A stretch of DNA of 64,000 nt, from assembly GCA_964640385.1 (NCBI GenBank), contig CAZXFL010000001.1, positions 15,179-79,178 of the forward strand, given 5' to 3'. The notes beneath the pieces were generated by a model. It saw only the letters and a program-made list of their open reading frames with translations. It made no database searches and was not told where the DNA came from. Origin of the DNA: an uncultured Actinomycetes bacterium. GTDB lineage: Bacteria; Actinomycetota; UBA4738; JBBDHU01. The position numbers and the translations under genes were made by a program. Positions within the stretch are counted from its first letter, which is position 1, and each line of letters opens with the position of its first letter. Below are positions 21,349-61,884 of the stretch, piece by piece.

Positions 21349-21357
21349 CTCCGTATC

Positions 21358-44412: not shown

Positions 44413-45564
44413 CTACCGGATGGGGCCCATAGCCCAGCCGAGCCCCATGATCGCCACGGGCGTGAGGAACAGGCCCCCCACGAAGATCCACGTTCGTCGG
44501 CTGGTCCCGACCACCCAGTCGTCGAGACCGATGACCATCTTCGTGATCGGCCTGTAGAGGACGATGAGGTAGAAGAGCGTGACGACCGTCACGCCTATGG
44601 CCTCGGCCAGGACGATCTGAGCGGCGCCGGCCTTCGCGAGCATCGCGACGACCAGCGTGTCCGCAAGTGTGGTGATGTTGGCGCCCATGATGTAAGGGAT
44701 GGACTCCCGCCGATTGATGTACCCCTTGGCGGCCAGCGGCACGAGGATCGTCAGCGCGACCGAGACCGACAGGGTCAGGAAGGCGGCGAGGCAGCCGAGC
44801 CCGAACATGGTCCACGGCTTCTTGAGCCAGTGGATGCGGTCGGCGGCGTGCTTCTCGCCGTCCAATTCCGGGAGGACCCGGTCGAGCAGCTTGAAGGAGA
44901 TCAGGATTACGCCCAGTCCGACCGGGAAGAGCAGCATCCCAGGGATGTGGTCGGTGATGAGCGTGACGAACGGACCCCAGACCTTGTCGATCAGGCTGTC
45001 CAATTCGCCGGATGCCTGGAGGTTGAAGCCGGACAGGAGCCCCAACTTGAGGATGAAGTACCCGAGGAACATCCCGGGGATGTAGACGAGCGCCGTCAGG
45101 GACAAGGCGAGGACGCCGATGCCGATCGTTCGCTTCTTATCCCTGTTCCTGATTGAGTACAGGAACCCGACGAGCAGAACGATGAGGGCCGCGCCGAGCC
45201 GGGAGCCCGACAGCATCGTGAACGTCTGCAGGGGGGTGAGGACGTTCCCCGAGTAGAAGGCGATGGCCGAGGCCGCGATCGGTGACCCGGAGAGCACGAG
45301 GTAGGCGCCCAGCCAGCCCATCCCCAGTGTCGTGACTCCGTTGTAGGTAAGGAAAGTGCCGTCGAGGCGGGGACCGATGAACTGGGCCCCCTTCGTCATC
45401 AGCTTGATCGCCAGGATGAACAGGAACAGGGCCACTACGAAGTGGAGCAGTTTGGACGCTCGCGAGCGCCACACGGCTGCGGAGGACGATCCGGGCCCGG
45501 GTGATTCGGGGAGCGTTGAGCCCGTGCTCACGGCAACATCATCTGAGGCTTCCAACGGTTCCTC
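44413..45564 (-). CDS. Na/Pi-cotransporter II-related family membrane protein (start uncertain)
   Basis: Na_Pi_cotrans-like repeat (ALFLFILAIKLMTKGAQ...SGSPIAASAIA) and multiple TM helices. The N-terminal 190 aa of ORF 44413..46152 overlap the divergent binding-protein gene and look non-coding. Possible starts are TTG 45564 or GTG 45531. Confidence 0.5.
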   Translation of the reverse strand, partial: EEPLEASDDVAVSTGSTLPESPGPGSSSAAVWRSRASKLLHFVVALFLFILAIKLMTKGAQFIGPRLDGTFLTYNGVTTLGMGWLGAYLVLSGSPIAASAIAFYSGNVLTPLQTFTMLSGSRLGAALIVLLVGFLYSIRNRDKKRTIGIGVLALSLTALVYIPGMFLGYFILKLGLLSGFNLQASGELDSLIDKVWGPFVTLITDHIPGMLLFPVGLGVILISFKLLDRVLPELDGEKHAADRIHWLKKPWTMFGLGCLAAFLTLSVSVALTILVPLAAKGYINRRESIPYIMGANITTLADTLVVAMLAKAGAAQIVLAEAIGVTVVTLFYLIVLYRPITKMVIGLDDWVVGTSRRTWIFVGGLFLTPVAIMGLGWAMGPIR

Positions 45565-45717
45565 GCTCAACGGCAGCTCCGACCTGGGGGGCTCGGGGTT
45601 CAAGTGAGGATATCGGCCGCCCCCGACCCTGGCAATGAACGGGGGTCCCGCTCGTCCCCCGATGGGCCTATAGTGGTGAACCGCAAGAGGTATCCGGTTC
45701 CCAAGGAGGTTGCAGCC

Positions 45718-46614
45718 ATGCAGAAGTTTCGGTTGTTGACGCTGTTCCTGATGGTCCTCGCCCTGACGGCGGCGGCTTGTACCAAGGGCGGATCCACGCC
45801 ATCGCCCGCCGGCGGGGGCGGGACAGAACCCGCGGGCAACGACCTTCTCGCGAAGATCAAGGCGGATGGGGTCATCCGCGTGTCTACGGACCCCGCCTAC
45901 CCGCCGCAGTCCGAGCTCAACCCCAAGACCGGTGAGTACGAGGGGTTCGACATCGATGTGGCCGAGGAGATTGCACGACGCCTCGACGTGAAAGTCGAAT
46001 GGGAGGCTCCGTCGTGGGACCTGATCACGGCCGGCGGCTGGAACGACCGCTGGGACATGAGCGTTGGGTCGATGACCGTGACGCCCGAGCGGGCGGAGGT
46101 CGTGGACTTCACTCCGGGGTACTACTACACGCCCGCCGTGGCGATGGTGCACGCGGACAACACGACCATCGTGGACCCGGCGGCGGACCTCGCCGGGAAG
46201 CAGGTCGGGGTATGCGGCGGCTGCACGTACGACTTCTACCTGCAGAAGACGCTCGAGATCCCCGGTGAAACGATCGACTTCCAGATCGACGACGCACAGA
46301 TCAAGACCTACGACACGGACTCGACCGCCATCCAGGACCTAACGTTGGGCGACGGTGACCGGCTGGATGCGGTCATCACTGCCGGGCCGACCGCAGAGGG
46401 CGCGGTGGACAAGGGCAAGCCGGTGAAGATCGTCGGCGAGCCGCTCTTCTACGAGCCGCTGGCCGTGGCGTTCGACAAGAAGTCCGAGCTAGACGGAGCC
46501 AGCCTCGTTGCCGCCGTCAGCGACATCATCACCGAGATGCATGCGGACGGCACCCTGACGGAGCTGTCGAACCAGTGGTTCGGCCAGGACCTCACGACCA
46601 GGGTCGCGAGCTAG
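45718..46614 (+). CDS. polar amino acid ABC transporter substrate-binding lipoprotein (SBP family 3)
   Basis: AAGGAGG RBS 8 nt before ATG 45718. Lipoprotein signal with lipobox (LTAAACTKG) and SBP_bac_3 fold. Confidence 0.8.
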   Translation: MQKFRLLTLFLMVLALTAAACTKGGSTPSPAGGGGTEPAGNDLLAKIKADGVIRVSTDPAYPPQSELNPKTGEYEGFDIDVAEEIARRLDVKVEWEAPSWDLITAGGWNDRWDMSVGSMTVTPERAEVVDFTPGYYYTPAVAMVHADNTTIVDPAADLAGKQVGVCGGCTYDFYLQKTLEIPGETIDFQIDDAQIKTYDTDSTAIQDLTLGDGDRLDAVITAGPTAEGAVDKGKPVKIVGEPLFYEPLAVAFDKKSELDGASLVAAVSDIITEMHADGTLTELSNQWFGQDLTTRVAS

Positions 46615-46690
46615 CCCGCCACGAGCTTGAAGCGATGACGCGGGCCGGGAGCCAAGGCGCTCTCGGCCCTCTCGCTGTCCGGGGGGCGCG

Positions 46691-47749
46691 GTGACGAACG
46701 CGACGGTCTACATGATCGGGGCCCTCGGCCTTTGGGCGGGGATCGTGGTCCCCCTGGCCGGGTGGGTCATCGTCCGGGCAGCCAAGGATCGCTCATGGGG
46801 CTGGCTCGCGCTGACGGTCGTCCTGGTCGCACTCGGAGTCCTGCCGGCCACGGTCGCCGTGATCGTCTACCCGATCATGGCTCATCGGCGTGTCCCGTTC
46901 CGTCTCTGGGTTGCGGTCGTGTGGATCGAGATCTTCGTGATCCTCGCGGCCCTCTTCACCCTGACCGGCTTCGACCTCGCCTGGATGCAGGAATACGGTC
47001 CCTACATCGTCAAGGGCCTGTGGGTGACGATCCTGATCGCACTCGGCGCGATCATCCTCGCCTTGATCCTGGCCCTCCTCGGGGCCCTCGGCCGTCTCTC
47101 GCGCAATCCGATCGCGTACGGCGTGGCAGGCTTCTACACATCCTTCTTCCGCGGTACACCCTTGATCGTGCAGCTCTTCCTCATCTACCTCGCACTTCCG
47201 CAGATGGTCCAAGGCCTCGATCTCCCGAGCGGGATCCAGGATCTCTTCCTCTTCGACGCCGTCGTCGCGGGGATCCTCGGTATCGGGCTGAACTACGGCG
47301 CGTACATGACCGAGATCTTCCGCGCCGGGATCGAGTCGGTGAGTCACGGCCAGCGTGAGGCTGCCGAGGCACTCGGGATGAGCTACCGCCAGACCATGCG
47401 CCGCGTCGTGCTTCCGCAGGCCTTCCGCGTCATCATCCCCCCCACGGGCAACGAGTTCATCGCCATGCTGAAGGACACCGCCCTCGTCAGTTTCCTCGGC
47501 GCAACCATCGAGTTCACCGAGATCTTCCGCCTCAGCCAGCTCTACGGGAAGGCAGACTTCAAGAACCTCGAAGCGTATGTCCTGGTCGCAGGGATGTACT
47601 GGATCCTGACGGCCATCTTCTCCTTCTTCCAAGCCAAGCTGGAGAGACGGATGGGCCGGGGCTACGTGCGGGCCGCGGCGGAAGCGGCGGCAGAGGGTGG
47701 CCTCGTGGTGTCGGCCGGACACCCCCGCGGCCAGGCGGGGCTCCACTGA
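46691..47749 (+). CDS. amino acid ABC transporter permease (with N-terminal TM extension)
   Basis: HisM/GlnP-type permease with the EAA-like loop ([22 protein letters not shown]). The extra N-terminal region holds about four TM helices. Confidence 0.75.
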
Positions 47750-48504
47750 TGCCGGAGCCGGTCGTCCGTGTCGAGCATCTGGGCAAGTCCTTCGGGAACC
47801 TCGAGGTGCTCAGCGATATCAACATCGAAGTCCAGCAGCGTGAGGTCATCGTCATCTTCGGCCGATCCGGGTCGGGAAAGTCGACCCTCCTGCGCTGCAT
47901 CAACTTCCTCGAGGAACCCACGTCGGGAGCGATCGAGGTCGACGGCGTCCGTGTCGACGCGGCCGCTCATCGCAACCGGCACGCGCGGGAGACCATCAGA
48001 GGTCTCCGCACCCACGCAGGCATGGTTTTCCAGGAGTTCAATCTGTTCCCCCACCTGTCGGTCCTCGAGAACATCATGAGCGGCCCCCTGATCGTCAAGA
48101 ACGCGGAGCGCTCCGAGGTCGAGCCGATGGCGCGCGAACTGCTCACCAAGGTCGGGCTGGCCGAGAAGGCCGACGAATACCCGATCCGGCTCTCCGGTGG
48201 TCAGAAGCAGCGAGTGGTGATCGCCCGCGCGCTTGCCATGCAGCCGAAGGTGATGCTCTTCGACGAGCCGACCTCGGCCCTCGACCCCGAGCTGATCGGC
48301 GAGGTCCTCGCCGTCATGAAGGAACTGGCCTCGGAGGGGATGACCATGCTGGTCGTTACCCACGAGATGGGGTTCGCTCGCGAGGTCGCCGACCGGCTTC
48401 TGTTCTTCCACGAGGGGGTCATCCTCGAACAAGGACCGCCGTCGGAGATCATCGCGAACCCGCAGCGCGAAGAGACGCGCAAGTTCCTCTCGGCGGTGCT
48501 GTAA
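47749..48504 (+). CDS. amino acid ABC transporter ATP-binding protein
   Basis: Walker A (GRSGSGKST), signature (LSGGQKQR), Walker B ([10 protein letters not shown]), H-loop. Overlaps the permease stop. Confidence 0.85.
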
Positions 48505-48509
48505 CCCCG

Positions 48510-49442
48510 TTACGGCGCCATCTGAGGGCGGGGCAACAGGCCGGACTCCTCGACGACCTTCGAGATCACCTCGGGGGCTTTGATCGAGATCAAGTGCACC
48601 CCCGCGACGCCGGCCATGTCACGCAGTTCCTTGACGATCTCGAGGCCGATCTGCACACCCTCCTCGGCTTGCTTCTCCTTCCGCGTGCCGTCCATCCGGG
48701 CGAGGAGCTCCTCCGGAACGTCGATCCCCGGGACCTGCTCAGACATGTAGTGCAGGGAGCGGGCGCTGCGTGGGATGCAGACAGACGGAAGGATGAAGAT
48801 CTTCTCGGGCAGACCGAGATCGTTGCACATCGACATGAACTCGCGCATCCGGTCGATGTTGAAGACGAGCTGCAGCTGGCAGAACTCTGCCCCGGCCTCC
48901 GCCTTCTTCGCCAGCCGGATCGGCCGGTAGTCCTGCGGCGGGGCGAACGGGTTCTCGACGCATCCGAGGAAGAAGCCGGGTCGGGCGTCGAGCTTGCGGC
49001 CGGACAGGTACGTCCCCTCGGTCCGCATGATGTCGAGGATCCGAAGCAGATGCACCGAGTCGATGTCGTAGATCGGCTTGGCCTCCGGGTGGTCACCGGC
49101 CGAGACATCGTCGCCCGTCAGGGCGCAGATGTTCTTCATCCCGAGCGCCATCGCTCCCAGGAGGTCCGCTTGCAGCGCAAGCCGGTTCCGGTCCCGGCAG
49201 ACGAACTGCACGATCGGCTCGAACCCGAGATCGACCAGCAGATGGCCGGCTGCGACGTTCTGGATGTGCGGGTGAGCGGACGAGTTGTCGGTCACGTTCA
49301 GGCCGTCGACATGCCCGCGCAGGACCTCGGTGACTTCGCGGATCGAGTCCGGGTCAGGGCTGTCCGTGGTCTCCAGCTCGGCGGTGACGACGAACGTCCC
49401 CGAGCGCAACAGCCTCTCGACATGACTCCGCGGTTCGATCAT
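48510..49442 (-). CDS. metF: 5,10-methylenetetrahydrofolate reductase (MetF, MTHFR family)
   Basis: MTHFR TIM-barrel family signatures. Paired with an MTHFR_C-like small Cys-rich protein upstream. Start set at MIEPRSH (internal Met of ORF 48510..49526). Confidence 0.75.
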   Translation of the reverse strand: MIEPRSHVERLLRSGTFVVTAELETTDSPDPDSIREVTEVLRGHVDGLNVTDNSSAHPHIQNVAAGHLLVDLGFEPIVQFVCRDRNRLALQADLLGAMALGMKNICALTGDDVSAGDHPEAKPIYDIDSVHLLRILDIMRTEGTYLSGRKLDARPGFFLGCVENPFAPPQDYRPIRLAKKAEAGAEFCQLQLVFNIDRMREFMSMCNDLGLPEKIFILPSVCIPRSARSLHYMSEQVPGIDVPEELLARMDGTRKEKQAEEGVQIGLEIVKELRDMAGVAGVHLISIKAPEVISKVVEESGLLPRPQMAP

Positions 49443-49486
49443 GGCTCCTCTTCGGTTCGGGTCGCCGATCCTCGACGGCCCCGCGC

Positions 49487-49909
49487 TCAGTGCGTCGCGC
49501 CGACCCGTTCGGCGTGAGCCCTCCATCCGTCGGGCACGACCTTATCGCGCCGCGTCACGAGGTTCTCCCACGAGCCCGTGTCCTGGAGCCGGAAGTCGAC
49601 CGGCGGGTTGATGTGCTTCATGTGGCTGCGCCAGAGCGGCATCTTGCGCGAACGCTCCCACGCCAGGACCCAGACGCAGGGCTTGTCGGGGAGGACCTCA
49701 CAGTTCCCGTTCAGCATCGTCCCGCCGCACGGGCCGTTGCGAAGGTTCTTCGGGCAGGTCATCGGACAGGTCAGACCGGTCGAGTGCAGGATGCACTGGC
49801 CGCACATCCGGCAGTCGAAGGCCACCTCCTTTCCCTTCTTCTCGAAGAGCAAGATCGCCTTGCGCAGGCCGCCGACGTGCTCAGCGGCGGGCCGTCCCTC
49901 GGGCTTCAT
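49487..49909 (-). CDS. metV: methylene-THF reductase C-terminal-domain-like zinc-binding protein (MetV-like partner of MetF)
   Basis: 140 aa with Cys clusters (CRMCGQC..., CPMTCPKNLRNGPCGG) characteristic of the MTHFR_C / MetV subunit that pairs with MetF in acetogen-type MetVF systems. Confidence 0.65.
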   Translation of the reverse strand: MKPEGRPAAEHVGGLRKAILLFEKKGKEVAFDCRMCGQCILHSTGLTCPMTCPKNLRNGPCGGTMLNGNCEVLPDKPCVWVLAWERSRKMPLWRSHMKHINPPVDFRLQDTGSWENLVTRRDKVVPDGWRAHAERVGATH

Positions 49910-49992
49910 CCCGTCGGTCCTCCCTGGTCACGACGGGCGAGCCGAGAAGGCCCGCCCGTCCCAGATTCTCGCATACGGTTCCTGACCCGGCG

Positions 49993-51177
49993 TCAGCCGC
50001 GCAGGTCCGCGGCCGGAACCTCCTTGCGCTGATCGACGAACGGGATCGCGGCGGTCTGGCCGACCAGCTTCTCCCCGTCCTCGGTCAAGACATCCAGCGG
50101 GGTACCGGGCTCGGACAGTCCGATCGGAACCCAGACGAAGCCGATGTTCTTCTCGAGGCCCGGCGAGTACACCGCGTCCGTCATGTGGCCGACCTTCTTT
50201 CCCCCGCTCAGGACGTCCCAGTACTCGGACATCTCAGCGCGAAGCTCCGGCATGTCCGGGAACTCGATGCCGACGAGCTTGCGGTCGACGCCCTTGGTGC
50301 GCAACCGCTCGAGCGCGTCCTTCCCGATGTAGTCGGCGTCCTGCTTCTCGACCAGGCGCTCGAGGCCCATCACGTGGAACGGGGTATCCGTCAACCGGAT
50401 GTCGGAGCCATAGTTGAAGATCCCCGCCTCGATGCGTCGAGCCTCGCACGGGGCGATCGGCCGGATCGCATGCTCCTCGCCCGCGGCAAGGACCGCGTCC
50501 CACAGGCGGCCACCCTCGTCGTAGCCGAGCAGGTTGATCTCGAAGCCCTGCACCGCCGTCCATCCCGTGCGGCTGATGACCACCGGGATACCGTCGATCT
50601 CGAAGTCGCCCGTCCAGTAGTACTTCAGATCGAGGATGCCGTCGCCCACCAGCTTCTCCAGTACCTTCGCGGCTTTCGCACCCTGCACCTGCATCGGGTA
50701 CACATCCGGCAGGGTCACCTGGACGTCCAACCCGGCGACCGCCGCGACGCCGAGCGCGTACAAGCCTGCGTCCGAGTCCGCCAACTGCATCCACCAGACG
50801 TTCTCCTTCGGGTGCAGCAGGACCGGGTCGTTGACGATCCCGCCGTCCGGCGCCGTGACGAGCTGGTACTTGCCCTGGTGGACCGCGACGTTCGACAGGT
50901 CGCGGCAGGTGATCATGTCGATGAGCTTGTCCGCGTCCGGGCCGCTCACTTCTACCGTCCGCTCGACGGCGACGTCCCACAGGGTGACGTCGTTGCGCAG
51001 CGCCCAGTACTCGACGACCGGATCATCGTAGTAGCCGGGGATGTACATGTGGTTGTAGATGTCGTATGCGGTGCAGCCGGCCTCGCGCGTCTTCTCGAAG
51101 TACGGCGACTTCCGGTACCACGGCCCGAAGTACAGGGTCGCGCTCTTCTCCAGCATCTCCTGACGCTCGTTCACCAT
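49993..51177 (-). CDS. GcvT-family aminomethyltransferase-like THF-dependent methyltransferase/demethylase, paralog 1
   Basis: GcvT fold signatures (SRTGWTAVQGFEI, C-terminal barrel). Stand-alone about 390 aa, like DmdA/LigM/DesA-type THF-dependent demethylases. Start at MVNERQEM. Confidence 0.75.
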   Translation of the reverse strand: MVNERQEMLEKSATLYFGPWYRKSPYFEKTREAGCTAYDIYNHMYIPGYYDDPVVEYWALRNDVTLWDVAVERTVEVSGPDADKLIDMITCRDLSNVAVHQGKYQLVTAPDGGIVNDPVLLHPKENVWWMQLADSDAGLYALGVAAVAGLDVQVTLPDVYPMQVQGAKAAKVLEKLVGDGILDLKYYWTGDFEIDGIPVVISRTGWTAVQGFEINLLGYDEGGRLWDAVLAAGEEHAIRPIAPCEARRIEAGIFNYGSDIRLTDTPFHVMGLERLVEKQDADYIGKDALERLRTKGVDRKLVGIEFPDMPELRAEMSEYWDVLSGGKKVGHMTDAVYSPGLEKNIGFVWVPIGLSEPGTPLDVLTEDGEKLVGQTAAIPFVDQRKEVPAADLRG

Positions 51178-51267
51178 CGCTTGCTCCTTACTTCCTCCGT
51201 GCGGCCGCGGGGGGCTCCCCGCGTCCGCATCCTCGCACCCCCGGTTCCCGGGGGCCAAATCCTGTGC

Positions 51268-52422
51268 TTAGCCCTTCGGAACATCCTTGCGCGGATCCAG
51301 GAACGGCAACGTCGTGGTCGTCCCGGTCAGCGTCCCGTCCGGGGACTCGATCTCGATCTGCGTGCCCGGTGCGGCTAGTTCGATCGGGAGCCAAACGTAG
51401 GCTAGGTTCTTCTCCACGCGAGGCGAGAAGCAGGCGGACGTCACGCGGCCGACCACCTCTCCCCCGCTGCGAACCGGCCAGAAGTCCACCAACCACCCTC
51501 GGAACGGCGGTCCGTCGATGAACGCGCCGGTAAGCTTGCGGCGCACGCCGTCCCGGCGCTGTCGCTCAAGGGCAGCCTTCCCGATGTAGTCGGCGTCCTG
51601 CTCCTCGACGAGGCGCTCCATACCCTCGACCTCGAAAGGCGTGTCCGTGATCCACATGTCGTTGTTGTAGTTGAAGATCCCGGCCTCCATGCGGCGGATG
51701 TCGTTGGGGGCAACGGTGCGAACCTCGTAGGGCTCCCCGGCCTGCTTGACCTTGTCCCAGAGGTCCGGCCCCCGGCTCCCGTCACGCAGGTACAGCTCGT
51801 AGCCGACCTCGCCGGACCAACCCGTCCTGCTGATGACCAGCGGGATCCCGTCCAGTTCGACCTGCCGGCACCAGTAATACTTCATGTCCAGGATGGAGTC
51901 TCCGAAGAGGTCCCGAACCACGTCCTTGGACCTCGGGCCTTGGATCTGCATCGGCGATACGTCCGGCTCACCGATGGTCACGTCAAGACCACTGTTGATG
52001 GCGACGCCCTTCGCCCAGAGCAGCGTGTCCGAGTCCGCGATGGAGAGCCAGAAATGGTCGTCGGCCAGGCGGAGCAGGATCGGGTCGTTGATGATGCCCC
52101 CGTCCGCGGCGGTGATGGGCGCGTACTTGCACTGGTCGACCTCGCACTTGGTCAGATCACGGCATGTCAGCCGGTTCGTGAACTCGAACGCATCCGGTCC
52201 GGTGACCTCCACCTGCCGCTCTACGCCGACGTCCCACATCGTGACCTTGTTGAGCAGGTGCCAGTACTCGTCGACGTCGTCCCCGTACACCGTCGGGATC
52301 AGCATGTGGTTGTAGATGTCGAAGCTCTGAACACCGTCCTCGATCGTCTTCGCGTAGTACGGCGACTTCCGGTACCAGGACGCGACGTAGAACGTGAACG
52401 TGTCTTCCTCATTGAGCGGCAT
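51268..52422 (-). CDS. GcvT-family THF-dependent methyltransferase/demethylase, paralog 2
   Basis: Homologous to paralogs 1 and 3 throughout (WYRKSPYY..., SRTGWSGEVGYEL, NLAYVWLPIELA). Confidence 0.75.
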   Translation of the reverse strand: MPLNEEDTFTFYVASWYRKSPYYAKTIEDGVQSFDIYNHMLIPTVYGDDVDEYWHLLNKVTMWDVGVERQVEVTGPDAFEFTNRLTCRDLTKCEVDQCKYAPITAADGGIINDPILLRLADDHFWLSIADSDTLLWAKGVAINSGLDVTIGEPDVSPMQIQGPRSKDVVRDLFGDSILDMKYYWCRQVELDGIPLVISRTGWSGEVGYELYLRDGSRGPDLWDKVKQAGEPYEVRTVAPNDIRRMEAGIFNYNNDMWITDTPFEVEGMERLVEEQDADYIGKAALERQRRDGVRRKLTGAFIDGPPFRGWLVDFWPVRSGGEVVGRVTSACFSPRVEKNLAYVWLPIELAAPGTQIEIESPDGTLTGTTTTLPFLDPRKDVPKG

Positions 52423-52494
52423 GCGGGCAGTCCTCCCCGGTCCGGCGCGTCGTCCACGGGCGGCGGAGACCTTCGAACCCGGATCCGATGATAG

Positions 52495-52520
52495 CCCTTG
52501 ACTGACTGGTCAGTCAAGGG
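52495..52520. promoter_or_regulatory. perfect 12-bp-arm palindrome CCCTTGACTGAC-TG-GTCAGTCAAGGG (candidate operator)
   Basis: Arms 52495-52506 and 52509-52520 are exact reverse complements around a 2-nt centre. Lies 73 to 98 bp upstream of paralog 2's start, between demethylase paralogs 3 and 2. Confidence 0.4.
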
Positions 52521-52547
52521 CTGGACCGTCCTTCTCGGACTGGACGT

Positions 52548-52585
52548 GAAGAAGGCCCCCGCCGCGAACGACGGAGGCCTTCTTC
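52548..52585 (-). terminator. GC-rich stem-loop (10-bp stem, 18-nt loop) 20 nt downstream of paralog 3's stop
   Basis: GAAGAAGGCC ... GGCCTTCTTC perfect inverted repeat. No strong U-tract, as is common in high-GC genomes. Confidence 0.35.
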
Positions 52586-52604
52586 GGCGGTTCCTGGGTA
52601 CCGG

Positions 52605-53762
52605 CTACTGCAGAGGGATCGTCTTCTTCGGGTCGACGAACGGGGTGGGAACGACCTGCGAGATCCGGTCGCCGTACGGGGTCTGCACTTCGACCTTCGT
52701 CCCCTCGCCGGCGAGTTCGATCGGCAGCCACGCGAACCCGATGTTCTTCTCGAGCCTCGGCGAGTAGATGGCCGACGTGACCTTGCCAACCTTCTTTCCC
52801 CCCTCGTGAACGTGCCACTTGGTGAAGTTCAGCTCGGGAAGCGGGTCGCCCTCGATCTCGATCCCGACGAGCTTCTTCGCGACACCCTTCTCTTTGATCG
52901 CCCGCAGCGCCGGGAGCGAGATGACCGCGTCGTCGGGAAGGTCCCAGTCGACGAGGCGCTCCAGGCCGGTGATCTCGAGCGGGCTGTTCTTCCAAGTCAT
53001 GTCGGCGCCCCAGTTGTAGATGGCGCCTTCGACCCGGCGGATGTCGACGGGACCCGTGGGCTTGATGTTGTACTTGGCCCCCGCCTCCATGATCCGCTCG
53101 TAAAGCTCAACGCCCCTGGTGCGGTCGGTTAGGTAGATCTCGTACCCGACCTCGGAGGTCCAACCTGTGCGGGTGATGACGACCGGGATGCCGTCCAGAT
53201 CCGTCTCGATGAAGAAGTAGTACTTGATGTCGAGGATCTGATCGCCGAAGACGTCCACCATCAGCTCCTTCGACCTCGGGCCCTGGATCTGCAGCGGCGA
53301 CACGTCCGCCTCCGTGACCGTCGCATCGAGGCCGTAGGCATCCGCGAGCCCCTTCGCGTAGAAGAGGACGTCGCTCGAGGCCAGGGCCAGCCAGAACTTG
53401 TTCTCGGACATCCTGGTCAGGACCGGGTCATTGAGGATGCCCCCGTCCTTCGCACAGATCAGGACGTACTTCGCCTGGCCGACCGCGCACTTCGAGAGGT
53501 CGCGCGGCGTCATCATCTGGGTCAGCTTGAATCCATCCGGCCCGTCGATCTCGACGCACCGCTCCACCGACACGTCCCAGACCGTGACGTCGTTCAGGAG
53601 CGTGTTGAGCTCATTCTCGAAGGCGTCGAAGCGGATCGGGAACAGCATGTGGTTGTAGACGGTGTAGCCCTTCGGACCGTATTTCTGCTCGGCCTCGTAG
53701 TACGGCGTCCGGCGCAACCGCGCCCCCCGTTGCACCAGCCTCATGTCGAATGATTCAGCCAT
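52605..53762 (-). CDS. GcvT-family THF-dependent methyltransferase/demethylase, paralog 3
   Basis: Same family as paralogs 1 and 2 (SRTGWTSEVGYEI, NIGFAWLPIELA), with more Lys/Ile-rich composition. Confidence 0.75.
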   Translation of the reverse strand: MAESFDMRLVQRGARLRRTPYYEAEQKYGPKGYTVYNHMLFPIRFDAFENELNTLLNDVTVWDVSVERCVEIDGPDGFKLTQMMTPRDLSKCAVGQAKYVLICAKDGGILNDPVLTRMSENKFWLALASSDVLFYAKGLADAYGLDATVTEADVSPLQIQGPRSKELMVDVFGDQILDIKYYFFIETDLDGIPVVITRTGWTSEVGYEIYLTDRTRGVELYERIMEAGAKYNIKPTGPVDIRRVEGAIYNWGADMTWKNSPLEITGLERLVDWDLPDDAVISLPALRAIKEKGVAKKLVGIEIEGDPLPELNFTKWHVHEGGKKVGKVTSAIYSPRLEKNIGFAWLPIELAGEGTKVEVQTPYGDRISQVVPTPFVDPKKTIPLQ

Positions 53763-53975
53763 CTCATACCTCCCTCGGTCTCCCTCCGGCGGACGGCTTC
53801 AGCCGACCGCACCGCTCCTAGCGACCTCAGCATGGTACACCGAACGTCCTTCGGGTTGCACTCCCAGATTCCGGGTATCGTGCGGCGCCATACCGTCAAC
53901 AGCGAACGGATGGAGGTCAGGCGGGGGGTATCTCTGCAGGTCATTCGGCACGTGGGACGGCCGGTTGGCCGACAG

Positions 53976-55628
53976 CTACCAACCGATCTCGGGGTCCGCG
54001 AAGACGGCTTCACCCTCGACCAACGTCAGGAGGGCCCGGGCGTCGCCGATCGGACCGCCGTCGGGCGCCAACAGGTTCCGGTCCGCGACCACCAGGTCCG
54101 CGTACTTCCCGGCCTCGAGTGATCCGGTGACATCGTCCTGGTGGTTCACGTAGGCGGCACCCATGGTGTAGGCGCGGATCGCTTGCTCGAGCGAGATGGC
54201 TTCATCGGGAAGCAGCGGTTCCGCCTCGGGTGCGTCACGACCGATCCGCGTCACTGCCACCTCCATCTGCAGGAACACGTTGGGCGACGAAACGCTCCAG
54301 TCGCTCCCGCCCGCCATCCGGGCGCCGCTTCGGAGCAGGCTCCCGAACGGGTAGAGCCAGCCCGACCGCTCCGGGCCCAGGATCGGGATGTTCAGGAGGT
54401 CCATCGCGGGCTCGTGGCACGCCCACAGCGGCTGCATGTTCGCGGTCACATCGAGCTGGGCGAACCGACCGATATCGTCGGGGTGAACGATCTGGATGTG
54501 CGAGATGTGGTGGCGGTGGGCGCGCCTTCCCGCCTGGCTCACGTGAGCCAATGCGTTCAGCCCGTTGCGGACCGCCCGTTCGCCGATGGCATGCATGTGG
54601 ATCTGGAAACCATCCTCATCCAGCATCGGCGCGATCTTGAGCAGCTGATCCGGGTCGATGAACTCGATGCCTCGCTCGGCCGTCGGTTTCCCATCCGGCC
54701 CGAGGTAGGGGTCGATGACGCACGCGGTCTTGTTCTCTACGATCCCATCGAGCATGAGCTTGACGGATGTCGGCCGGAAGCTCCCTGCTGCGAACGCTTC
54801 CCGTTTCTCGCGAAGGTCGTCCAGTTGCCCGAGGCCCCGCTCCGGGAACCACCAGAGCGCGCCGACGACCCGCGCGGTCAACGCTCCGCTCTCCCCGAAC
54901 TCCCGGTACACACCGAGCGCGTCCCCCCAGGAGGACTCCCCGACGATGGCGTCCTGCCATGACGTGATCCCCAAGGCGTGCAGGTACTCCTGTGCGACCA
55001 GCAACCCCCTCCGGACGTCGTCGATGGTCGGTGACGGGGCGAAGCGCCCGACGAGGTCGGCGGCGCCCTCCTGGAACATGCCGATGGGCTTCCCACCGGG
55101 GTCACGTTCGAGATACCCGTCCGGGGGATCGGGCGTGTCCTTCGTCACGCCGGCCAGTTCCATCGCCTTCGTGTTGGCCCAGGCGCCGTGGCCGTCCGAG
55201 TTCGAGAGGAAGGCAGGACGGTCCGGAACGACCGCATCCAGTTCGGCTGCGGTGGGGACGCCACCCGGGAAACTGGAGAGCCCCCACCCGCTGCCCAGGA
55301 TCCAGGGCTCGTCGGGGTGGCTCGCGGCGTAGGCCCGGACCGCCTCGAGGACCTCGTCGTGGCCTTCGACCTCGAGGAGGTCGCACCGCATGCGGTCGAT
55401 GCCGGCTATGGGCGGATGGACGTGCGCATCTTGGAAGCCGGGCAGGATCATCCGGCCGGGCAGGTCGAGCACACGGGTCGACGGGCCGCGCAGCTCGTCC
55501 ACGTCTTCGCTGGAACCGACCGCCACGATGCGGCCCCCGCGCACGGCCAGCGCCTGCGCCCAGGGTTCCGCCGGATCGACCGTGTAGACGGCCGCCCCGG
55601 TCAGGATCAGATCGGCTTCGGTGCCCAC
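53976..55628 (-). CDS. metal-dependent amidohydrolase (Amidohydro_3 family)
   Basis: 550 aa with HxH motif (GFQDAHVHPPIAG) and Amidohydro_3 C-terminal signatures. Same orientation and immediately upstream of the demethylase paralogs. Confidence 0.75.
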   Translation of the reverse strand: MGTEADLILTGAAVYTVDPAEPWAQALAVRGGRIVAVGSSEDVDELRGPSTRVLDLPGRMILPGFQDAHVHPPIAGIDRMRCDLLEVEGHDEVLEAVRAYAASHPDEPWILGSGWGLSSFPGGVPTAAELDAVVPDRPAFLSNSDGHGAWANTKAMELAGVTKDTPDPPDGYLERDPGGKPIGMFQEGAADLVGRFAPSPTIDDVRRGLLVAQEYLHALGITSWQDAIVGESSWGDALGVYREFGESGALTARVVGALWWFPERGLGQLDDLREKREAFAAGSFRPTSVKLMLDGIVENKTACVIDPYLGPDGKPTAERGIEFIDPDQLLKIAPMLDEDGFQIHMHAIGERAVRNGLNALAHVSQAGRRAHRHHISHIQIVHPDDIGRFAQLDVTANMQPLWACHEPAMDLLNIPILGPERSGWLYPFGSLLRSGARMAGGSDWSVSSPNVFLQMEVAVTRIGRDAPEAEPLLPDEAISLEQAIRAYTMGAAYVNHQDDVTGSLEAGKYADLVVADRNLLAPDGGPIGDARALLTLVEGEAVFADPEIGW

Positions 55629-55691
55629 GAGGAGGAATCCTACCGGCCCCTGCTACCCTTTCCCGGTCGAACGTCGAGGAGGCAAGAGCGG

Positions 55692-56132
55692 ATGGCGGGA
55701 CCGGAACGGCTTGAGGTGCGCTACGAGCACCTGTACGTGAAGGTGCCCGGCACCGACAAGCTGCGGAAGACAGCCGATGGCCGGCTGCGCTCCCTGCTCA
55801 CTGACGGGTGGCGCGAGATCCAGCGCACCCAGGAGACCGACTACATCCAGGTCCGGCTCGAGCGGACGGGTCACAAGCCGCCGATGCGGCGCTTGCCCTA
55901 CATCCCGCCGCAGCAGCCGCGCCAGCGGCGCGAGGGTGGATTCCGCGGCGGTGACCGTCGTGGCCCCGGTGGACCTGGTGGACCTGGTGGACCTGGTGGA
56001 CGCCCGCCGCAGGGCCAAACCGCGCCTGCGCCGACGGCCGCTGCCCCCGTGACAGCCGCTGCCCCCGTGACACCGGCTCCAGAGTCGCCGGCAGCCCCGG
56101 CTCCAGCCCCAACCCCAACGTCTTCGTCCTAG
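55692..56132 (+). CDS. hypothetical protein with Gly-Pro repeat and Ala/Pro-rich C-terminus
   Basis: GAGGAGG RBS 8 nt upstream of ATG 55692. Structured N-terminal 70 aa followed by (GGP)n and AAPVT repeats. Confidence 0.55.
   Translation: MAGPERLEVRYEHLYVKVPGTDKLRKTADGRLRSLLTDGWREIQRTQETDYIQVRLERTGHKPPMRRLPYIPPQQPRQRREGGFRGGDRRGPGGPGGPGGPGGRPPQGQTAPAPTAAAPVTAAAPVTPAPESPAAPAPAPTPTSSS
55965..56000 (+). repeat. tandem 9-nt (GGTGGACCT) repeat encoding GPGGPGGPGG
   Basis: Three or four direct 9-nt units inside the CDS. An adjacent 18-nt duplication at about 56037-56078 encodes AAPVTAAAPVT. Confidence 0.5.
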
Positions 56133-56142
56133 ACGCGAACGA

Positions 56143-56170
56143 GCCCGGCCTACCGGCCGGGCCCTTTCAT
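56143..56170 (+). terminator. intrinsic terminator-like hairpin (GCCCGGCC-TACC-GGCCGGGC followed by CCTTTCAT)
   Basis: Perfect 8-bp GC stem with a 4-nt loop and a T-rich tail. Lies between the convergent hypothetical gene and cspA. Confidence 0.45.
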
Positions 56171-56195
56171 CGCTCTGGTGGTCCTGCGCGATGTC

Positions 56196-56399
56196 CTATT
56201 GGGCGACACGGACGTTCGAAGCCTGCGGGCCTTTGTCGCCCGATGTGACCTCGTACTCGACCTTCTGTCCCTCATCCAGGGTCTTGAAGCCCTCGGACTG
56301 GATCGAGGAGAAGTGGACGAACACGTCGGTGCCGTCCTCGCCGGTGATGAAACCGTAGCCCTTCTCGGCGCTGAACCACTTCACGGTACCTGTCGCCAC
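56196..56399 (-). CDS. cspA: cold-shock protein (CspA family)
   Basis: 67 aa with RNP1/RNP2 motifs ([20 protein letters not shown]). Confidence 0.9.
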
Positions 56400-56499
56400 C
56401 CGCTGTTCCTTTCCGAACGACGTACGCGCCGGACTGTAACACGAGGGGCCATCCGGGGGACAACGGGCGTCGGACGGGCTCTTCAGGTGGGTGATCAGG

Positions 56500-56589
56500 T
56501 GGTGTCGGAGGAGGGATTTGAACCCTCACGCCCCGTAAGGGGCACTAGGCCCTCAACCTAGCGCGTCTACCAAGTTCCGCCACTCCGAC
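56500..56589 (-). tRNA. tRNA-Leu (anticodon GAG), class II with long variable arm, CCA encoded
   Basis: Reverse complement folds as acceptor GTCGGAG/CTCCGAC, anticodon stem CTAGG/CCTAG with loop TTGAGGG (anticodon GAG), long variable arm (GTGCCCCTTACGGGGCG), T-arm GAGGG-TTCAAAT-CCCTC and a 3' ACCA. Confidence 0.8.
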
Positions 56590-56637
56590 GAGTGCGCCCG
56601 AGATCCTACCCGGGCCGTCCGGCCCGCTCGGCCGGCC

Positions 56638-56862
56638 CTAGCTCCACTTCCAGGAGAGCCAGAAGGTCGTCATCCCGAACACAACGGCCGTGATCACCGT
56701 GATGCGGTCCAGCCGGCGTTCCATGCCGGTCCCGCCCGAGAGCCCAGCTCCGCCGCCGAACATGTCCGACAGTCCCCCACCCTTCCCGGAGTGCAGCAGC
56801 ACCAGGAAGATCAGCGCGAGCGCGGCGATGACGTCGGTGATCAGGACGATGACGTTGAGCAT
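56638..56862 (-). CDS. secG: preprotein translocase subunit SecG
   Basis: 74 aa: MLNVIVLITDVIAALALIFLVLLHSGKGGGLSDMFGGG..., typical SecG. GAGGAG RBS upstream of ATG 56862. Confidence 0.8.
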   Translation of the reverse strand: MLNVIVLITDVIAALALIFLVLLHSGKGGGLSDMFGGGAGLSGGTGMERRLDRITVITAVVFGMTTFWLSWKWS

Positions 56863-56906
56863 CGGTTCTCCTCGTGTGGGTGTCCCCGATGATAGCGCGA
56901 GCGGGC

Positions 56907-57925
<1,019 letters not shown>

Positions 57926-57929
<4 letters not shown>

Positions 57930-58942
57930 GTTCGGTGGTCCCTCAGTTCGGTGAACAACCGTTCCTTCTCCTCGGGGGCGAGGAAACACGCTGAGGCATG
58001 GGTTCCGGCGTCGGCCACGAGCTCTGGCCGTTCCGACCGACACCGGTCCATGACGTGTGGGCAGCGGGGATGGAAGGCGCAACCACTCGGAACCCCGATC
58101 AAGGATGGCGGCAGCCCGGCGATCGGGGTGAGGCGATCCCCGGCCGGATCCTCGAGACGCGGGATGGAACCGAGCAGGCCCCAGGTGTAGGGGTGGCGAG
58201 CGCGGTAGTAGAGATCATCAGCCCGGCCTCGTTCGACAATCCGGCCTGCGTACATGACCGCGATCTCGTCGCAGTGCTCGGCGACCACCCCGAGGTCGTG
58301 CGTGATGAGCACCACGGCCGTGTTCATCTCCTCACGGAGGCGCTGGATCAGATCGAGGATCTGCGCTTGCACCGTCACATCCAGCGCCGTGGTCGGCTCG
58401 TCCGCGATCAGCAGGACCGGGTCCAGCGCGAGGGCCATCGCGATCATCGCGCGCTGACGCATCCCCCCGGAAAACTCATGTGGATACTGCCGGGCCCGTT
58501 CCGCCGGCTTCGCGATGGCCACCTTGGCTAGCATGTCCACCGCACGTTCCGATGCCTCCCGCTTGGAGATCGGCTCGTGGGCCCGGATCGCTTCGGCGAT
58601 CTGGTCCCCGACCCGGTAGAAGGGGTGGAGGGAGGTCATCGGATCCTGGAAGATCATGCTGATCTGTCGACCTCGAACCTCCTGCATCTCCGACGACGAG
58701 AGGGTGAGAAGATCCCGGCCTCCGAAGTGCGCCGCACCCTCGCGCACCGACGACGCCGGATCCAGCAGACCCATCACGGCGAGCCAGGAGACACTCTTAC
58801 CCGAACCTGACTCCCCCACAACGCCGACCATCGACCCGGCCTCAACCGACAGGCTGATCCCATCGACCGCCTTCACCGTGCCATCCTCGGTGGGGAACCG
58901 GACGCGGAGGTCGTCGATCTCGAGGATGGGCTTGGATGTCAT
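57926..58942 (-). CDS. oppD: oligopeptide/dipeptide ABC transporter ATP-binding protein (OppD/DppD-like)
   Basis: Walker A (GESGSGKS), signature (FSGGMRQR), Walker B ([11 protein letters not shown]) and a C-terminal extension. Confidence 0.8.
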
Positions 58943-58944
58943 CG

Positions 58945-59916
58945 CTACTCGTACCTCACCCGGGGATCCAGGAACGCGTACGACACGTCGACAACCAGAT
59001 TCGCGACGACGATGAAGAAGGCGGCGATCACGGTGACGGCCATCGTGGCCGGGAAGTCGTTGTTGTTAAGGGCATCCACTGCGTACTTCCCGAGACCGTG
59101 GAGGTTGAAGGCGACCTCGGTGATGATCACGCCTCCGAGGAGCGCCCCGACATCGAGTCCCAGCATCGTCACGATGGGAGTCAGTGACGAGCGCAGCCCG
59201 TGTTTGTAGATCACCCGGCGTTCGGAGAGACCTTTGGCTCGAGCCGTCCGGATGTAGTCCTCACCCAAGGTCTCGAGCATGTTGCTCCGGACCATCCTGG
59301 TGTAGAAGGCAGCCGACGTGATCGCGATCGTGAGCCACGGCAACCAGAACCGCCCCTGCACGATCGCCTCGGGGATCGACTCGTTCACGGGGATCCCGCT
59401 GCTCGGCGCCCAACCGAGCTTGAACGCGAATACGAAGAGCAAGAGTTGCGCGATCCAGAACGTCGGCGCTGAGACCCCGACGATGGCGCCGACCATCGCC
59501 GTCCGGTCCGCGAGCGTGCCTCGCTTGACCGCCGAGATGACTCCGGTGGGGATCCCGATCGCCAGCCAGAGGATGGCACCGCCGATGGCCAGCGTGGCCG
59601 TGATCGGGAACCGCTCGGCGATCTCCTCCCGAACCGCGACTCCACTGCCATACGAGTAGTACACGTCCTCGTTGAGGAACCACCCGGGAACCGGCACCAG
59701 TCCCTTTGCGAAACGGCCGTACTGCACGTACCACGGCTGATCCAGGCCGAGACCCGCCCGCGCCTCCGCGATCGCCTCCGGCGTCGGTGATTTGCCCGCG
59801 GCTCTCCTGGCCGGATCCCCTGGAGGGATCACGACGAAGATGAGGAAGGTCACCACCGACACGATCCACAGAACCAGGACCATGAAGAGGGCACGCCGGA
59901 TCAGGTACCGGCCCAT
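58945..59916 (-). CDS. peptide ABC transporter permease (DppB/OppB-like)
   Basis: Starts MGRYLIRRALF like DppB. BPD_transp_1 region with EAA loop (IRTARAKGLSERRVIYKHGLR). Confidence 0.75.
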   Translation of the reverse strand: MGRYLIRRALFMVLVLWIVSVVTFLIFVVIPPGDPARRAAGKSPTPEAIAEARAGLGLDQPWYVQYGRFAKGLVPVPGWFLNEDVYYSYGSGVAVREEIAERFPITATLAIGGAILWLAIGIPTGVISAVKRGTLADRTAMVGAIVGVSAPTFWIAQLLLFVFAFKLGWAPSSGIPVNESIPEAIVQGRFWLPWLTIAITSAAFYTRMVRSNMLETLGEDYIRTARAKGLSERRVIYKHGLRSSLTPIVTMLGLDVGALLGGVIITEVAFNLHGLGKYAVDALNNNDFPATMAVTVIAAFFIVVANLVVDVSYAFLDPRVRYE

Positions 59917-59976
59917 GTCGCTCCCGCAAGTCCTGCCGCCGCTGGATCACCCAGATCGGTCATGTGCGTCGCCGGG

Positions 59977-61836: not shown

Positions 61837-61884
61837 CGTTCCTCCTTCATCTCACAGCACGTTGCGGTTCTCGGTTCGTGTACC

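Follow-up and report, generated by a model that had tools for sequence, protein, structure and literature searches.

What do three neighbouring genes for stand-alone GcvT-fold proteins do beside a methylenetetrahydrofolate reductase (MTHFR)? The question is raised by a 64,000-nucleotide stretch of DNA (hereafter, the window; assembly GCA_964640385.1, contig CAZXFL010000001.1, positions 15,179 to 79,178) from an uncultured soil or sediment actinobacterium, whose nearest named relative is the metagenome-assembled genome (MAG) GCA_040880465.1, "Actinomycetota bacterium". A first-pass annotation had described here six co-oriented genes on the minus strand, and gene calling and Pfam confirmed all of them: an Amidohydro_3 hydrolase (53976-55628; 550 residues, PF07969 with 284 bits over residues 52-543); T1, a DmdA-like GcvT-fold folate-binding protein (52605-53762; 385 residues); T2, a DmdA-like GcvT-fold protein (51268-52422; 384 residues); T3, a derived DmdA-like paralog (49993-51177; 394 residues, its ATG lying inside an open reading frame (ORF) of 421 codons); MetV, the Cys-rich small subunit of a MetVF-type MTHFR (49487-49909; 140 residues, PF12225 with 96.8 bits); and MetF, the MTHFR catalytic subunit (48510-49442; 310 residues, PF02219 with 101 bits; an alternative start at 49526 would give 338 residues). 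In T1, T2, and T3, Pfam recognised the GCV_T and GCV_T_C domains. The gene calls of an identical JGI metagenome contig concur with ours and settle the starts of T3 and MetF, and the third-position GC content (GC3) of the cluster genes is 0.86-0.91. From the hydrolase gene through T1, T2, T3, and metV to metF, the intergenic gaps measure 213, 182, 90, 83, and 44 bp; hence, the short gaps described in the first-pass annotation are found between the last four genes, while the first two gaps are not really short and that of 182 bp holds a promoter-like site.

The explanation to which we give an even chance is that T1, T2, and T3 are folate-dependent methyltransferases acting on betaine-type or sulfonium donors and coupled to MetVF, which would oxidise the 5-methyl-tetrahydrofolate (5-methyl-THF) so formed. 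According to this scheme, each T protein would, like DmdA, bind tetrahydrofolate (THF) and take a methyl group directly from a positively charged donor (a betaine-type quaternary ammonium compound, a product of its partial demethylation, or else a sulfonium); the product would be 5-methyl-THF, with neither oxygen nor a corrinoid being required. MetVF would then oxidise 5-methyl-THF to 5,10-methylene-THF, regenerating THF and feeding the one-carbon (C1) pool; alternatively, methyl-THF could pass straight to methionine synthesis. T1, T2, and T3 would be old paralogs differing in specificity, that is, acting on different donors or at different steps.

DmdA, the dimethylsulfoniopropionate (DMSP) demethylase, transfers a methyl group to THF in a redox-neutral reaction that yields 5-methyl-THF. 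Its model (NF009133, cut-off 410 bits) was the top NCBIfam match of all three proteins, scoring 361.4, 362.6, and 297.2 bits for T1, T2, and T3, respectively, i.e., under the cut-off in each case, and the trimethylamine N-oxide (TMAO) demethylase (Tdm) model came second; the Tdm, GcvT, SoxA, DesA, and LigM models were far weaker, each remaining under its own cut-off. Moreover, the top solved structure for the three proteins was the DmdA of Pelagibacter ubique (3TFH; 34-38% identity, with 38% for T1 and 35% for T2), whose stand-alone GCV_T plus GCV_T_C architecture they match (384-394 residues versus about 370). As for GcvT, TIGR00528 gave 129-160 bits (cut-off 235.85) and NF001567 gave 150-173 bits (cut-off 300), the identity with Escherichia coli GcvT was 26-29%, and probing the window by tblastn with E. 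coli GcvH and GcvP did not retrieve any match to gcvH or gcvP. The scores under the cut-offs, together with the absence of gcvH and gcvP from the window, rule out a true GcvT identity, so that T1, T2, and T3 are not glycine-cleavage T proteins, the outcome on which the first-pass annotation had made its proposal depend. That annotation had assigned them to the DmdA/LigM/DesA type: the DmdA-like and stand-alone part of the assignment holds, the LigM/DesA part does not. A LigM- or DesA-type O-demethylase would score over the cut-offs of 580 and 800 bits across a protein of about 450-470 residues; the three proteins reached 29-60 bits, over the N-terminal folate domain only, and this identity is therefore ruled out by the hidden Markov model (HMM) scores. 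We do not accept them as true DmdA proteins either, given that the score lies below the cut-off, that dmdBCD genes are lacking nearby (the annotated neighbours of the cluster comprise no gene for an acyl-CoA ligase or dehydrogenase), and that their relatives come largely from soil MAG collections.

The residues around the two binding sites were then compared. The DMSP-contact Trp W171 and the folate-site residues E178 and Y180 (PMC7487153) are positions 197, 204, and 206 of the 3TFH chain. T1, T2, and T3 all have the Trp that aligns with the DMSP contact, the folate-site Glu, and the catalytic NDP motif; the folate-site Tyr is present in T1 and T2 and is replaced by Asn in T3. A further set of residues (K94, D149, Q154, Y177, Y178, R238, N246, R329, and N333) is invariant within the family and differs from DmdA. 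T3 additionally carries replacements at positions that are otherwise family-invariant (in 3TFH chain numbering, E147 to L, as in the window, or to M or Y, P158A, S160A, E200V, and Y206N), and these are common to the window and to the T3 genes of four related loci (L006 11246-12430, L088 14365-15549, L090 11153-12334, and L091 6773-7942); the T3-like gene of locus L095 retains the ancestral residues at the same positions. The conservation of these replacements in the lineage, together with a ratio of nonsynonymous to synonymous substitution rates (dN/dS) of 0.07-0.08, points to a changed function of T3 and not to decay.

Indeed, when compared with their orthologues in two related MAGs, T1, T2, T3, MetV, and MetF all exhibited dN/dS values of 0.06-0.10 (0.06-0.07 for T1, 0.06-0.10 for T2), which rules out pseudogenes, a possibility that had been left open for the three paralogs; the hydrolase is less constrained (dN/dS 0.16-0.17, with 79-81% identity versus 88-95% in the other cluster genes). 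The pairwise identity among T1, T2, and T3 is 46-54%, and in neighbour-joining trees (200 bootstraps) they occupy three separate, widespread clades (bootstrap 0.82-0.995). A recent tandem triplication is therefore ruled out, and the triplication on which the first-pass annotation had built cannot be maintained in that sense, the more so as syntenic relatives harbor from zero to three T copies. Judging from their sequences, T1, T2, and T3 are three intact, constrained, and old paralogs of a DmdA-like family.

This family is large. A protein search with T2, in which 8,000 candidates were scored, retrieved at least 7,986 matches at E ≤ 1e-20, including hundreds of metagenome proteins about 65% identical to T2, whose source annotations read only "aminomethyltransferase" or "glycine cleavage T protein". 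Among species-representative genomes, more than 593 stretches matched, and the best 80 of them (hereafter, the 80 genome loci) derive from soil MAGs of Actinomycetota, Gaiellaceae, Gemmatimonadota, Chloroflexota, Binatia, Steroidobacteraceae, and Thermoplasmata, from a few marine Alphaproteobacteria, and from one cultured strain, Nocardiopsis rhodophaea. The placement of DmdA with respect to the T family received a bootstrap of at most 0.26. Overall, the comparison suggests that T1, T2, and T3 belong to what is most likely a sister family of DmdA, very large, found mostly in soil, and uncharacterised.

Independent support for the proposed methyl transfer comes from a sister clade found in glycine betaine loci (bootstrap 0.87; 52-56% identical to T2), to which none of T1, T2, and T3 belongs and in which Tyr replaces the aligned substrate-contact Trp and Ala replaces N246. 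In seven loci of Actinomycetota and Steroidobacteraceae, a short MTHFR of another kind immediately follows the gene of this clade, and in N. rhodophaea the gene stands beside a divergently transcribed MetV-MetF pair. Its neighbours code for a DAO-GCV_T (dimethylglycine dehydrogenase-like) protein, SoxA, SoxB, and SoxG, and further for an OpuAC-type ATP-binding cassette (ABC) transporter, an Fe-dependent alcohol dehydrogenase (Fe-ADH), an aldehyde dehydrogenase, and GntR or IclR regulators. No GbcA-like Rieske gene was found in these loci, so that, for converting glycine betaine to dimethylglycine, these loci offer no candidate other than the T protein. An adjoining MTHFR, here of two types, would make sense only if 5-methyl-THF were formed.

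The MTHFR of the window has the two parts of a MetVF-type (type 3) enzyme, namely a PF02219 catalytic subunit and a PF12225 Cys-rich subunit encoded directly upstream of it, and thus its predicted architecture, together with MetV, is that of type 3. Eight Cys residues of MetV are invariant in six homologues, and MetF directly follows MetV in every related locus long enough to show it. The top NCBIfam match of MetF was the MTHFR half of the YitJ-type bifunctional enzyme (187 bits), the canonical MetF models scoring far under their cut-offs and the MTHFRs of the Protein Data Bank matching only at about 1e-8. The pairing of MetV with MetF had been called uncommon in such a context, which is not borne out: relatives of MetV occur in more than 568 metagenome stretches, and the pair is also present in cultured Nocardiopsis. 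Locus L100 harbors two MetV-MetF pairs about 2 kb apart (5028-6259 and 8001-9338), one 69%/68% and the other 43%/41% identical to the MetV/MetF of the window.

The comparison of the window with loci of its own lineage revealed a shared backbone (iPGM-(Opp)-secG-csp-hydrolase, then MetV-MetF-(amino-acid ABC)-Na/Pi-HisPhos-HtrA-TrmI-Mpa), in which the relatives differ for the content of the interval between the hydrolase and MetV, the number of T copies being 0, 1, 2, or 3. We can depict the following organizations: T1-T2-T3 in the window, L006, and L088; T1-T3 in L090 (which lacks the ABC transporter), L105, and L108; a Rieske gene followed by T1-T3 in L091 and L093; the same order in L094 and L096, where the contig is cut within the Rieske gene upstream of T1 and the hydrolase is not seen; a Rieske gene followed by T1 in L101, L102, and L106; a fragmented Rieske gene and T1, then MetV-MetF, with T3 placed after MetF, in L095; nothing between the hydrolase and MetV in L089, where the ABC transporter follows MetVF; and MetVF plus the ABC transporter with no hydrolase or T gene upstream in L100. 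T1 orthologues thus stand beside MetVF in L006, L088, L090, L091, L093-L096, L099, L101, L102, L105, L106, and L108; T2 was found in L006 and L088 and neither in L090 nor in any of L091-L108. Among metagenome loci in which metV is preceded by 2.5 kb of sequence or more, T1, alone or together with T3, adjoins MetVF in 10 of the 14 (L106 included) that have a MetV of about 63% identity or higher, and no T gene does so in the remaining 25, more distant MetV loci. The adjacency of T1 or T3 to MetVF is kept down to about 65% identity, also through the rearrangement seen in L095. Since it is kept in the relatives, and since the sister clade of the glycine betaine loci lies beside another type of MTHFR, the functional link between the T genes and MTHFR that the first-pass annotation had proposed appears plausible.

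The Rieske protein of these relatives has both the Rieske and the Ring_hydroxyl_A domains; its top matches are GbcA, the stachydrine demethylase Stc2 (3vca, 4qup), and the carnitine monooxygenase CntA (6y8j), although the GbcA model scored only 174 bits (cut-off 670). These affinities would give the cluster of the lineage a betaine flavour. No homologue of the Rieske oxygenase, of a CrtO-like oxidase dependent on flavin adenine dinucleotide (FAD), or of dimethylglycine dehydrogenase (DMGDH) was retrieved by tblastn across the window; with no oxidase partner detected, redox-neutral methyl transfer alone would fit the gene set of the window. Three loci have T2 without the Rieske gene and eight have the Rieske gene without T2, and from this distribution T2 is a putative late acquisition, confined within the lineage to clusters devoid of the Rieske gene.

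Outside the lineage, the clades of T1, T2, and T3 have other neighbours. T2 groups (bootstrap 0.88) with genes lying immediately downstream of a 538-residue FAD oxidoreductase similar to CrtO/phytoene desaturase in soil actinomycete MAGs, a clade near T2 and T3 comprises the second T gene of the same loci, and T2, T3, and these relatives join with a bootstrap of 0.81. The T1 clade includes Gemmatimonadota genes adjoining the same kind of FAD oxidoreductase and one gammaproteobacterial gene (L074). Of the 80 genome loci, 33 have the FAD oxidoreductase next to the T gene, 8 have an MTHFR, and none has both. The loci with the CrtO-like enzyme (L004, L005, and L008-L044; e.g., L011 8375-9991), which is encoded immediately upstream of the T-family gene, frequently also contain MFS_3 transporters, DUF179, a second T gene, an S-adenosylmethionine (SAM) methyltransferase, a Rieske ferredoxin, and a ferredoxin reductase; the oxidoreductase could oxidise the product, the substrate, or even methyl-THF. 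Furthermore, proteins of about 320 residues whose similarity to the betaine-type Rieske oxygenase is confined to its catalytic half (Ring_hydroxyl_A) are encoded just downstream of T2-clade genes (L016, L017, L022, L026, L027, L030, L032, L036, L039, L040, L043, and L067), with an identity of 56-63% in 11 loci and of 49-54%, in two pieces, in L039; the arrangement resembles an oxygenase split in two, the Rieske ferredoxin being a small protein of its own. Full-length Rieske homologues lie downstream of T1-clade genes in L057 and L073. In soil Thermoplasmata MAGs, T paralogs occur in tandem (three in L046, L048, and L052; two in L047), adjoined by a DDAH/arginine-deiminase-like gene; all archaeal T copies are monophyletic (bootstrap 0.95), and this triplet therefore arose independently of T1, T2, and T3.

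The GcvT-like domains of dimethylglycine oxidase, sarcosine oxidase, and the TMAO demethylase capture a C1 unit as methylene-THF. In the main alternative, the T proteins would do the same and would not be methyltransferases: they could trap the iminium or hydroxymethyl intermediate released by a separate oxidase or Rieske monooxygenase, forming 5,10-methylene-THF, with MetVF reducing the latter for methionine synthesis or being a mere neighbour. We regard this as possible but not probable. The position of T2-clade genes directly downstream of the CrtO-like FAD oxidoreductase in 33 genome loci, that of T1-clade genes in Gemmatimonadota, the Rieske catalytic-domain homologues that follow T2-clade genes in 12 loci and, at full length, T1-clade genes in L057 and L073, the betaine-type Rieske gene preceding T1 in the window's own lineage, and the second rank of the TMAO demethylase among the HMM matches would all agree with such a capture. 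However, the window, L006, L088, L090, L105, and L108 harbor constrained T genes and neither an oxidase nor a Rieske gene in the cluster, and none was detected in the whole window; a catabolic route of this kind would be expected beside FolD, PurU, or Fhs, and not beside an MTHFR; and the clade of the glycine betaine loci has no oxidase to serve, because dimethylglycine dehydrogenase carries its own GcvT domain, and yet adjoins an MTHFR. Moreover, no GcvT-fold protein that stands alone is known to work for a Rieske oxygenase. The missing partner in the window and in the clusters of five relatives, together with the MTHFR linkage, weakens this alternative. Historical adjacency of three unrelated jobs is unlikely, in our opinion: MetVF would be a housekeeping MTHFR, the hydrolase would be unrelated, and the T genes would be accessory insertions for true DMSP or S-methylmethionine demethylases or for glycine-cleavage-like enzymes working independently of MetVF. 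Such a view agrees with L089, which has the hydrolase, MetVF, and the ABC transporter but no T gene (L100 likewise for MetVF and the transporter), with the variable T copy number, with the promoter and putative operator that T2 has of its own, and with the conserved DMSP-contact Trp; it is opposed by the T1/T3-MetVF adjacency kept over about 35% divergence and a change of gene order, by the rise of the same pairing with a different MTHFR type in the sister clade, by DmdA and GcvT scores below the cut-offs with no dmdBCD-like or gcvHP gene nearby, and by the origin of the relatives largely in soil MAG collections, soil being a place where, in our reasoning, DMSP would be scarce.

Within the proposed methyl transfer to THF, the special case put forward by the first-pass annotation is that T1, T2, and T3 strip a single trimethylammonium compound in sequence (glycine betaine to dimethylglycine, sarcosine, and glycine), passing the methyl groups onto THF for oxidation by MetVF. 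This is rather unlikely. The cluster does have three enzymes and no oxidase, the leaving-group chemistry would be alike across the steps, an independent tandem triplet exists in soil Thermoplasmata, and the relatives have Rieske, T1, and T3, with T2 occurring only in clusters devoid of the Rieske gene (three loci versus eight). On the other hand, L090, L105, and L108 have only T1 or T1 plus T3 and no Rieske gene; none of the three proteins falls in the clade of the glycine betaine loci, which differs at the contact Trp and at N246; T2-clade genes elsewhere coexist with Rieske homologues and do not replace them; T3 has lost the folate-site Tyr; and the transporter nearby is of the amino-acid and not of the betaine type, and is unlinked to the T genes. 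A still broader proposition holds jointly that T2, T1, and T3 each pass one methyl group of a trimethylammonium compound (e.g., glycine betaine) to THF, with MetVF oxidising the product in a complete oxygen- and corrinoid-free route, that T2 replaces the GbcA/Stc2-like Rieske first step of the relatives, and that the clade of the glycine betaine loci provides many soil bacteria with the folate-dependent demethylase of glycine betaine that has long been missing; taken as a whole, we deem it unlikely.

Several observations weigh against the methyl transfer to THF that we favour. MetVF-type (type 3) enzymes are regarded as reductive (PMC11868366), and the hydrolase and MetVF are present without any T gene in L089, as is MetVF in L100. 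Neither MetVF nor the hydrolase nor the ABC transporter is dedicated to the T genes, since each occurs in their absence, and MetVF is probably the general MTHFR of the lineage; the adjacency of the T genes to MetVF could be inherited synteny. The closest outside relatives of T1, T2, and T3 adjoin an FAD oxidoreductase or Rieske catalytic subunits and not an MTHFR, and these neighbourhoods would also fit the C1-capture role. With Y206N, T3 is devoid of the folate-site Tyr, and no dedicated transporter or regulator gene points to a substrate. Lastly, nothing on the biochemistry of any T-family member was found in the searchable literature, and the literature searched held no paper on a folate-dependent GcvT-fold methyltransferase for glycine betaine or betaine-type donors.

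How does the locus compare with known demethylation systems? The DmdA proteins of P. ubique (3TFH) and Ruegeria pomeroyi share with T1, T2, and T3 the stand-alone GcvT fold of about 370-390 residues and the retained Trp, NDP motif, and Glu; the identity of 34-38%, the scores under the cut-off, the family-specific residues, the lack of dmdB, dmdC, and dmdD nearby, and a habitat that for the relatives is largely represented by soil MAG collections and is not marine set them apart. In anaerobes, MtgB, MtcB, MtpB, and MtyB carry out an oxygen-independent demethylation of betaines in which the methyl group reaches THF and an MTHFR runs in reverse; these systems combine an MttB-fold enzyme and a corrinoid protein with a second methyltransferase and an activase, and the annotated genes surrounding the cluster include none of these. 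Aerobic demethylation of betaines starts with Rieske enzymes (GbcAB/BmoAB, Stc2, CntAB) and proceeds through DgcAB or DMGDH and then Sox, these enzymes releasing formaldehyde or making methylene-THF, not methyl-THF. The clusters of the relatives, with their GbcA/Stc2/CntA-like gene, and the clade of the glycine betaine loci, flanked by DMGDH and Sox, resemble this route, unlike the window, with its lack of detectable Rieske, DMGDH-like, or CrtO-like homologues.

Parallels in logic are the ligM-metF-ligH arrangement of Sphingobium lignivorans SYK-6 and the type 4 MTHFRs coupled to THF-dependent demethylases, in which an adjacent MTHFR oxidises the 5-methyl-THF coming from the demethylase (PMC11868366). 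The demethylases described with type 4 MTHFRs are LigM, DesA, Dmt, and CmuAB, and this S6MTHFR-type enzyme is a single subunit with specific motifs in loop beta2-alpha3, helix alpha8, and loop beta8-alpha11 (PMC11868366). The cluster of the window likewise combines a THF-dependent demethylase with an adjacent methyl-THF-oxidising MTHFR, both predicted here from the genes, but the demethylase is from another branch of the GcvT superfamily and in three paralogs, no ligH- or purU-like gene is present, and the MTHFR is a predicted heteromeric Fe-S MetVF (type 3) instead of a single-subunit type 4 enzyme. The locus would thus represent a variant of the known demethylase-MTHFR pairing, with a different demethylase family and a type 3 MetVF. 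Moreover, two aminomethyltransferases of SAR11, SAR11_1265 and SAR11_1303, were reported in 2011 as being of unknown function, one of them beside a glycine-betaine transporter and sarcosine oxidase (PMC3160333). They are GcvT-family paralogs like the T proteins, and their betaine context parallels that of the glycine betaine loci; in contrast to T1, T2, and T3, they are marine and alphaproteobacterial, with no MTHFR neighbour reported (PMC3160333).

The T family spans Actinomycetota, Gemmatimonadota, Chloroflexota, Steroidobacteraceae, and Thermoplasmata under generic or misleading annotation. Betaines, choline derivatives, and methylated osmolytes are major sources of carbon, nitrogen, and methyl groups in soil, and betaine demethylation is known to start with Rieske oxygenases, betaine-homocysteine methyltransferase, or corrinoid systems. 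Should our explanation be true, the transfer of N-methyl groups to folate by DmdA-like enzymes paired with an MTHFR would be a fourth route, cheap and independent of oxygen and cobalamin; many soil genomes would be mis-annotated and their capacity to use methyl groups underestimated. The locus of the cultured N. rhodophaea offers an experimental handle.

Regarding the expression of the cluster, the gap between T1 and T2 holds the sole sigma70-like promoter match in the region 48000-56600, with the hexamers TTGACT and TATCAT separated by an 18-nt spacer (52488-52517, read on the minus strand from 52517 to 52488, upstream of T2). Its -35 is contained in a perfect 20-bp palindrome, TTGACTGACCAGTCAGTCAA (52498-52517), a putative operator at which a repressor would control T2 and what follows it; this palindrome is unique in the window (0.01 chance matches expected), and L006 and L088 conserve no other block of the T1-T2 gap. 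Related palindrome sites are also present ahead of a T-like gene in L037 and, in L095, ahead of the T3-like gene, giving six sites altogether (window 52498-52517, L006 9910, L088 13069, L037 446 and 2044, and L095 9340). In the E. coli betI-betT intergenic region, all six have their best match at the same spot, the TTGATTGGACGTTCAATATA dyad, with 12-16 of 20 bases; this spot is presumably the BetI operator, and we take it as a lead only. In a shuffle test, the match was clearly significant only for the two L037 sites (4/2000 and 0/2000 shuffles reaching the score) and marginal for the window (81/2000) and L006 (43/2000). The TTGACTGACCAGTCAGTCAA palindrome may be a candidate BetI-like operator; no BetI homologue was retrieved by tblastn from the window or any locus, and ten further ORFs of the window that were examined include only MerR-type regulators and no TetR. 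Rfam did not detect any THF, SAM, glycine, or B12 riboswitch in the region 45000-57000, even at E values up to 1. The promoter and the palindrome in the T1-T2 gap support at least two transcription units (T1 alone and T2-T3-metV-metF); T2, T3, metV, and metF are probably one regulated transcription unit, as predicted from these sites, and T1 and the hydrolase gene would rely on upstream regions of their own.

The amidohydrolase had been placed in the pathway by the first-pass annotation, before or after the demethylation steps. The protein is a YtcJ-like Amidohydro_3 enzyme that matched no specific NCBIfam equivalog, and its closest structures (3igh, 3icj) are uncharacterised proteins. It persists without T genes in L089 and adjoins T-family genes in none of the 80 genome loci, so that it appears to be a conserved syntenic neighbour whose membership of the system is doubtful. 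Similarly, the polar amino-acid ABC transporter (45604-48504, plus strand; SBP_bac_3, permease, and ATPase according to Pfam) is indeed adjacent and convergent, ending 5 bp from the metF stop, but it is not linked to the T genes: it occurs without them in L089 and L100, and they occur without it in L090 and L091. Its best NCBIfam matches were cystine and Lys/Arg/Orn binding proteins, both under the cut-off, and the only counter-hint is L074, where homologues of this transporter (49% and 43% identical) flank the T1-clade gene. The presence/absence pattern across the relatives thus lends no support to either the hydrolase or this transporter as a member of the pathway.

An Opp/Dpp-type ABC transporter (56907-62895; OppC, SBP_bac_5, OppB, OppD, and OppF) lies between an iPGM-like gene and secG in the window, and is likewise present in L088 and L090. 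It was ruled out as a part of the system, being missing at that position in the close relative L006 (4177-5739) and separated from the cluster by secG, a tRNA-Leu gene, and cspA. The tRNA-Leu(GAG) gene (56500-56589) is placed between secG and the gene for a cold-shock protein, which together with its leader (56136-56555) gave a sub-threshold match to the cspA thermoregulator (61.7 bits versus a gathering score of 78). Just downstream of the cluster, the window harbors the Pup-proteasome genes Mpa, Dop, and PrcB. Finally, a second Amidohydro_3 (YtcJ-like) paralog of 510 residues, 28% identical to the hydrolase of the cluster, is encoded on the minus strand at 19825-21357.

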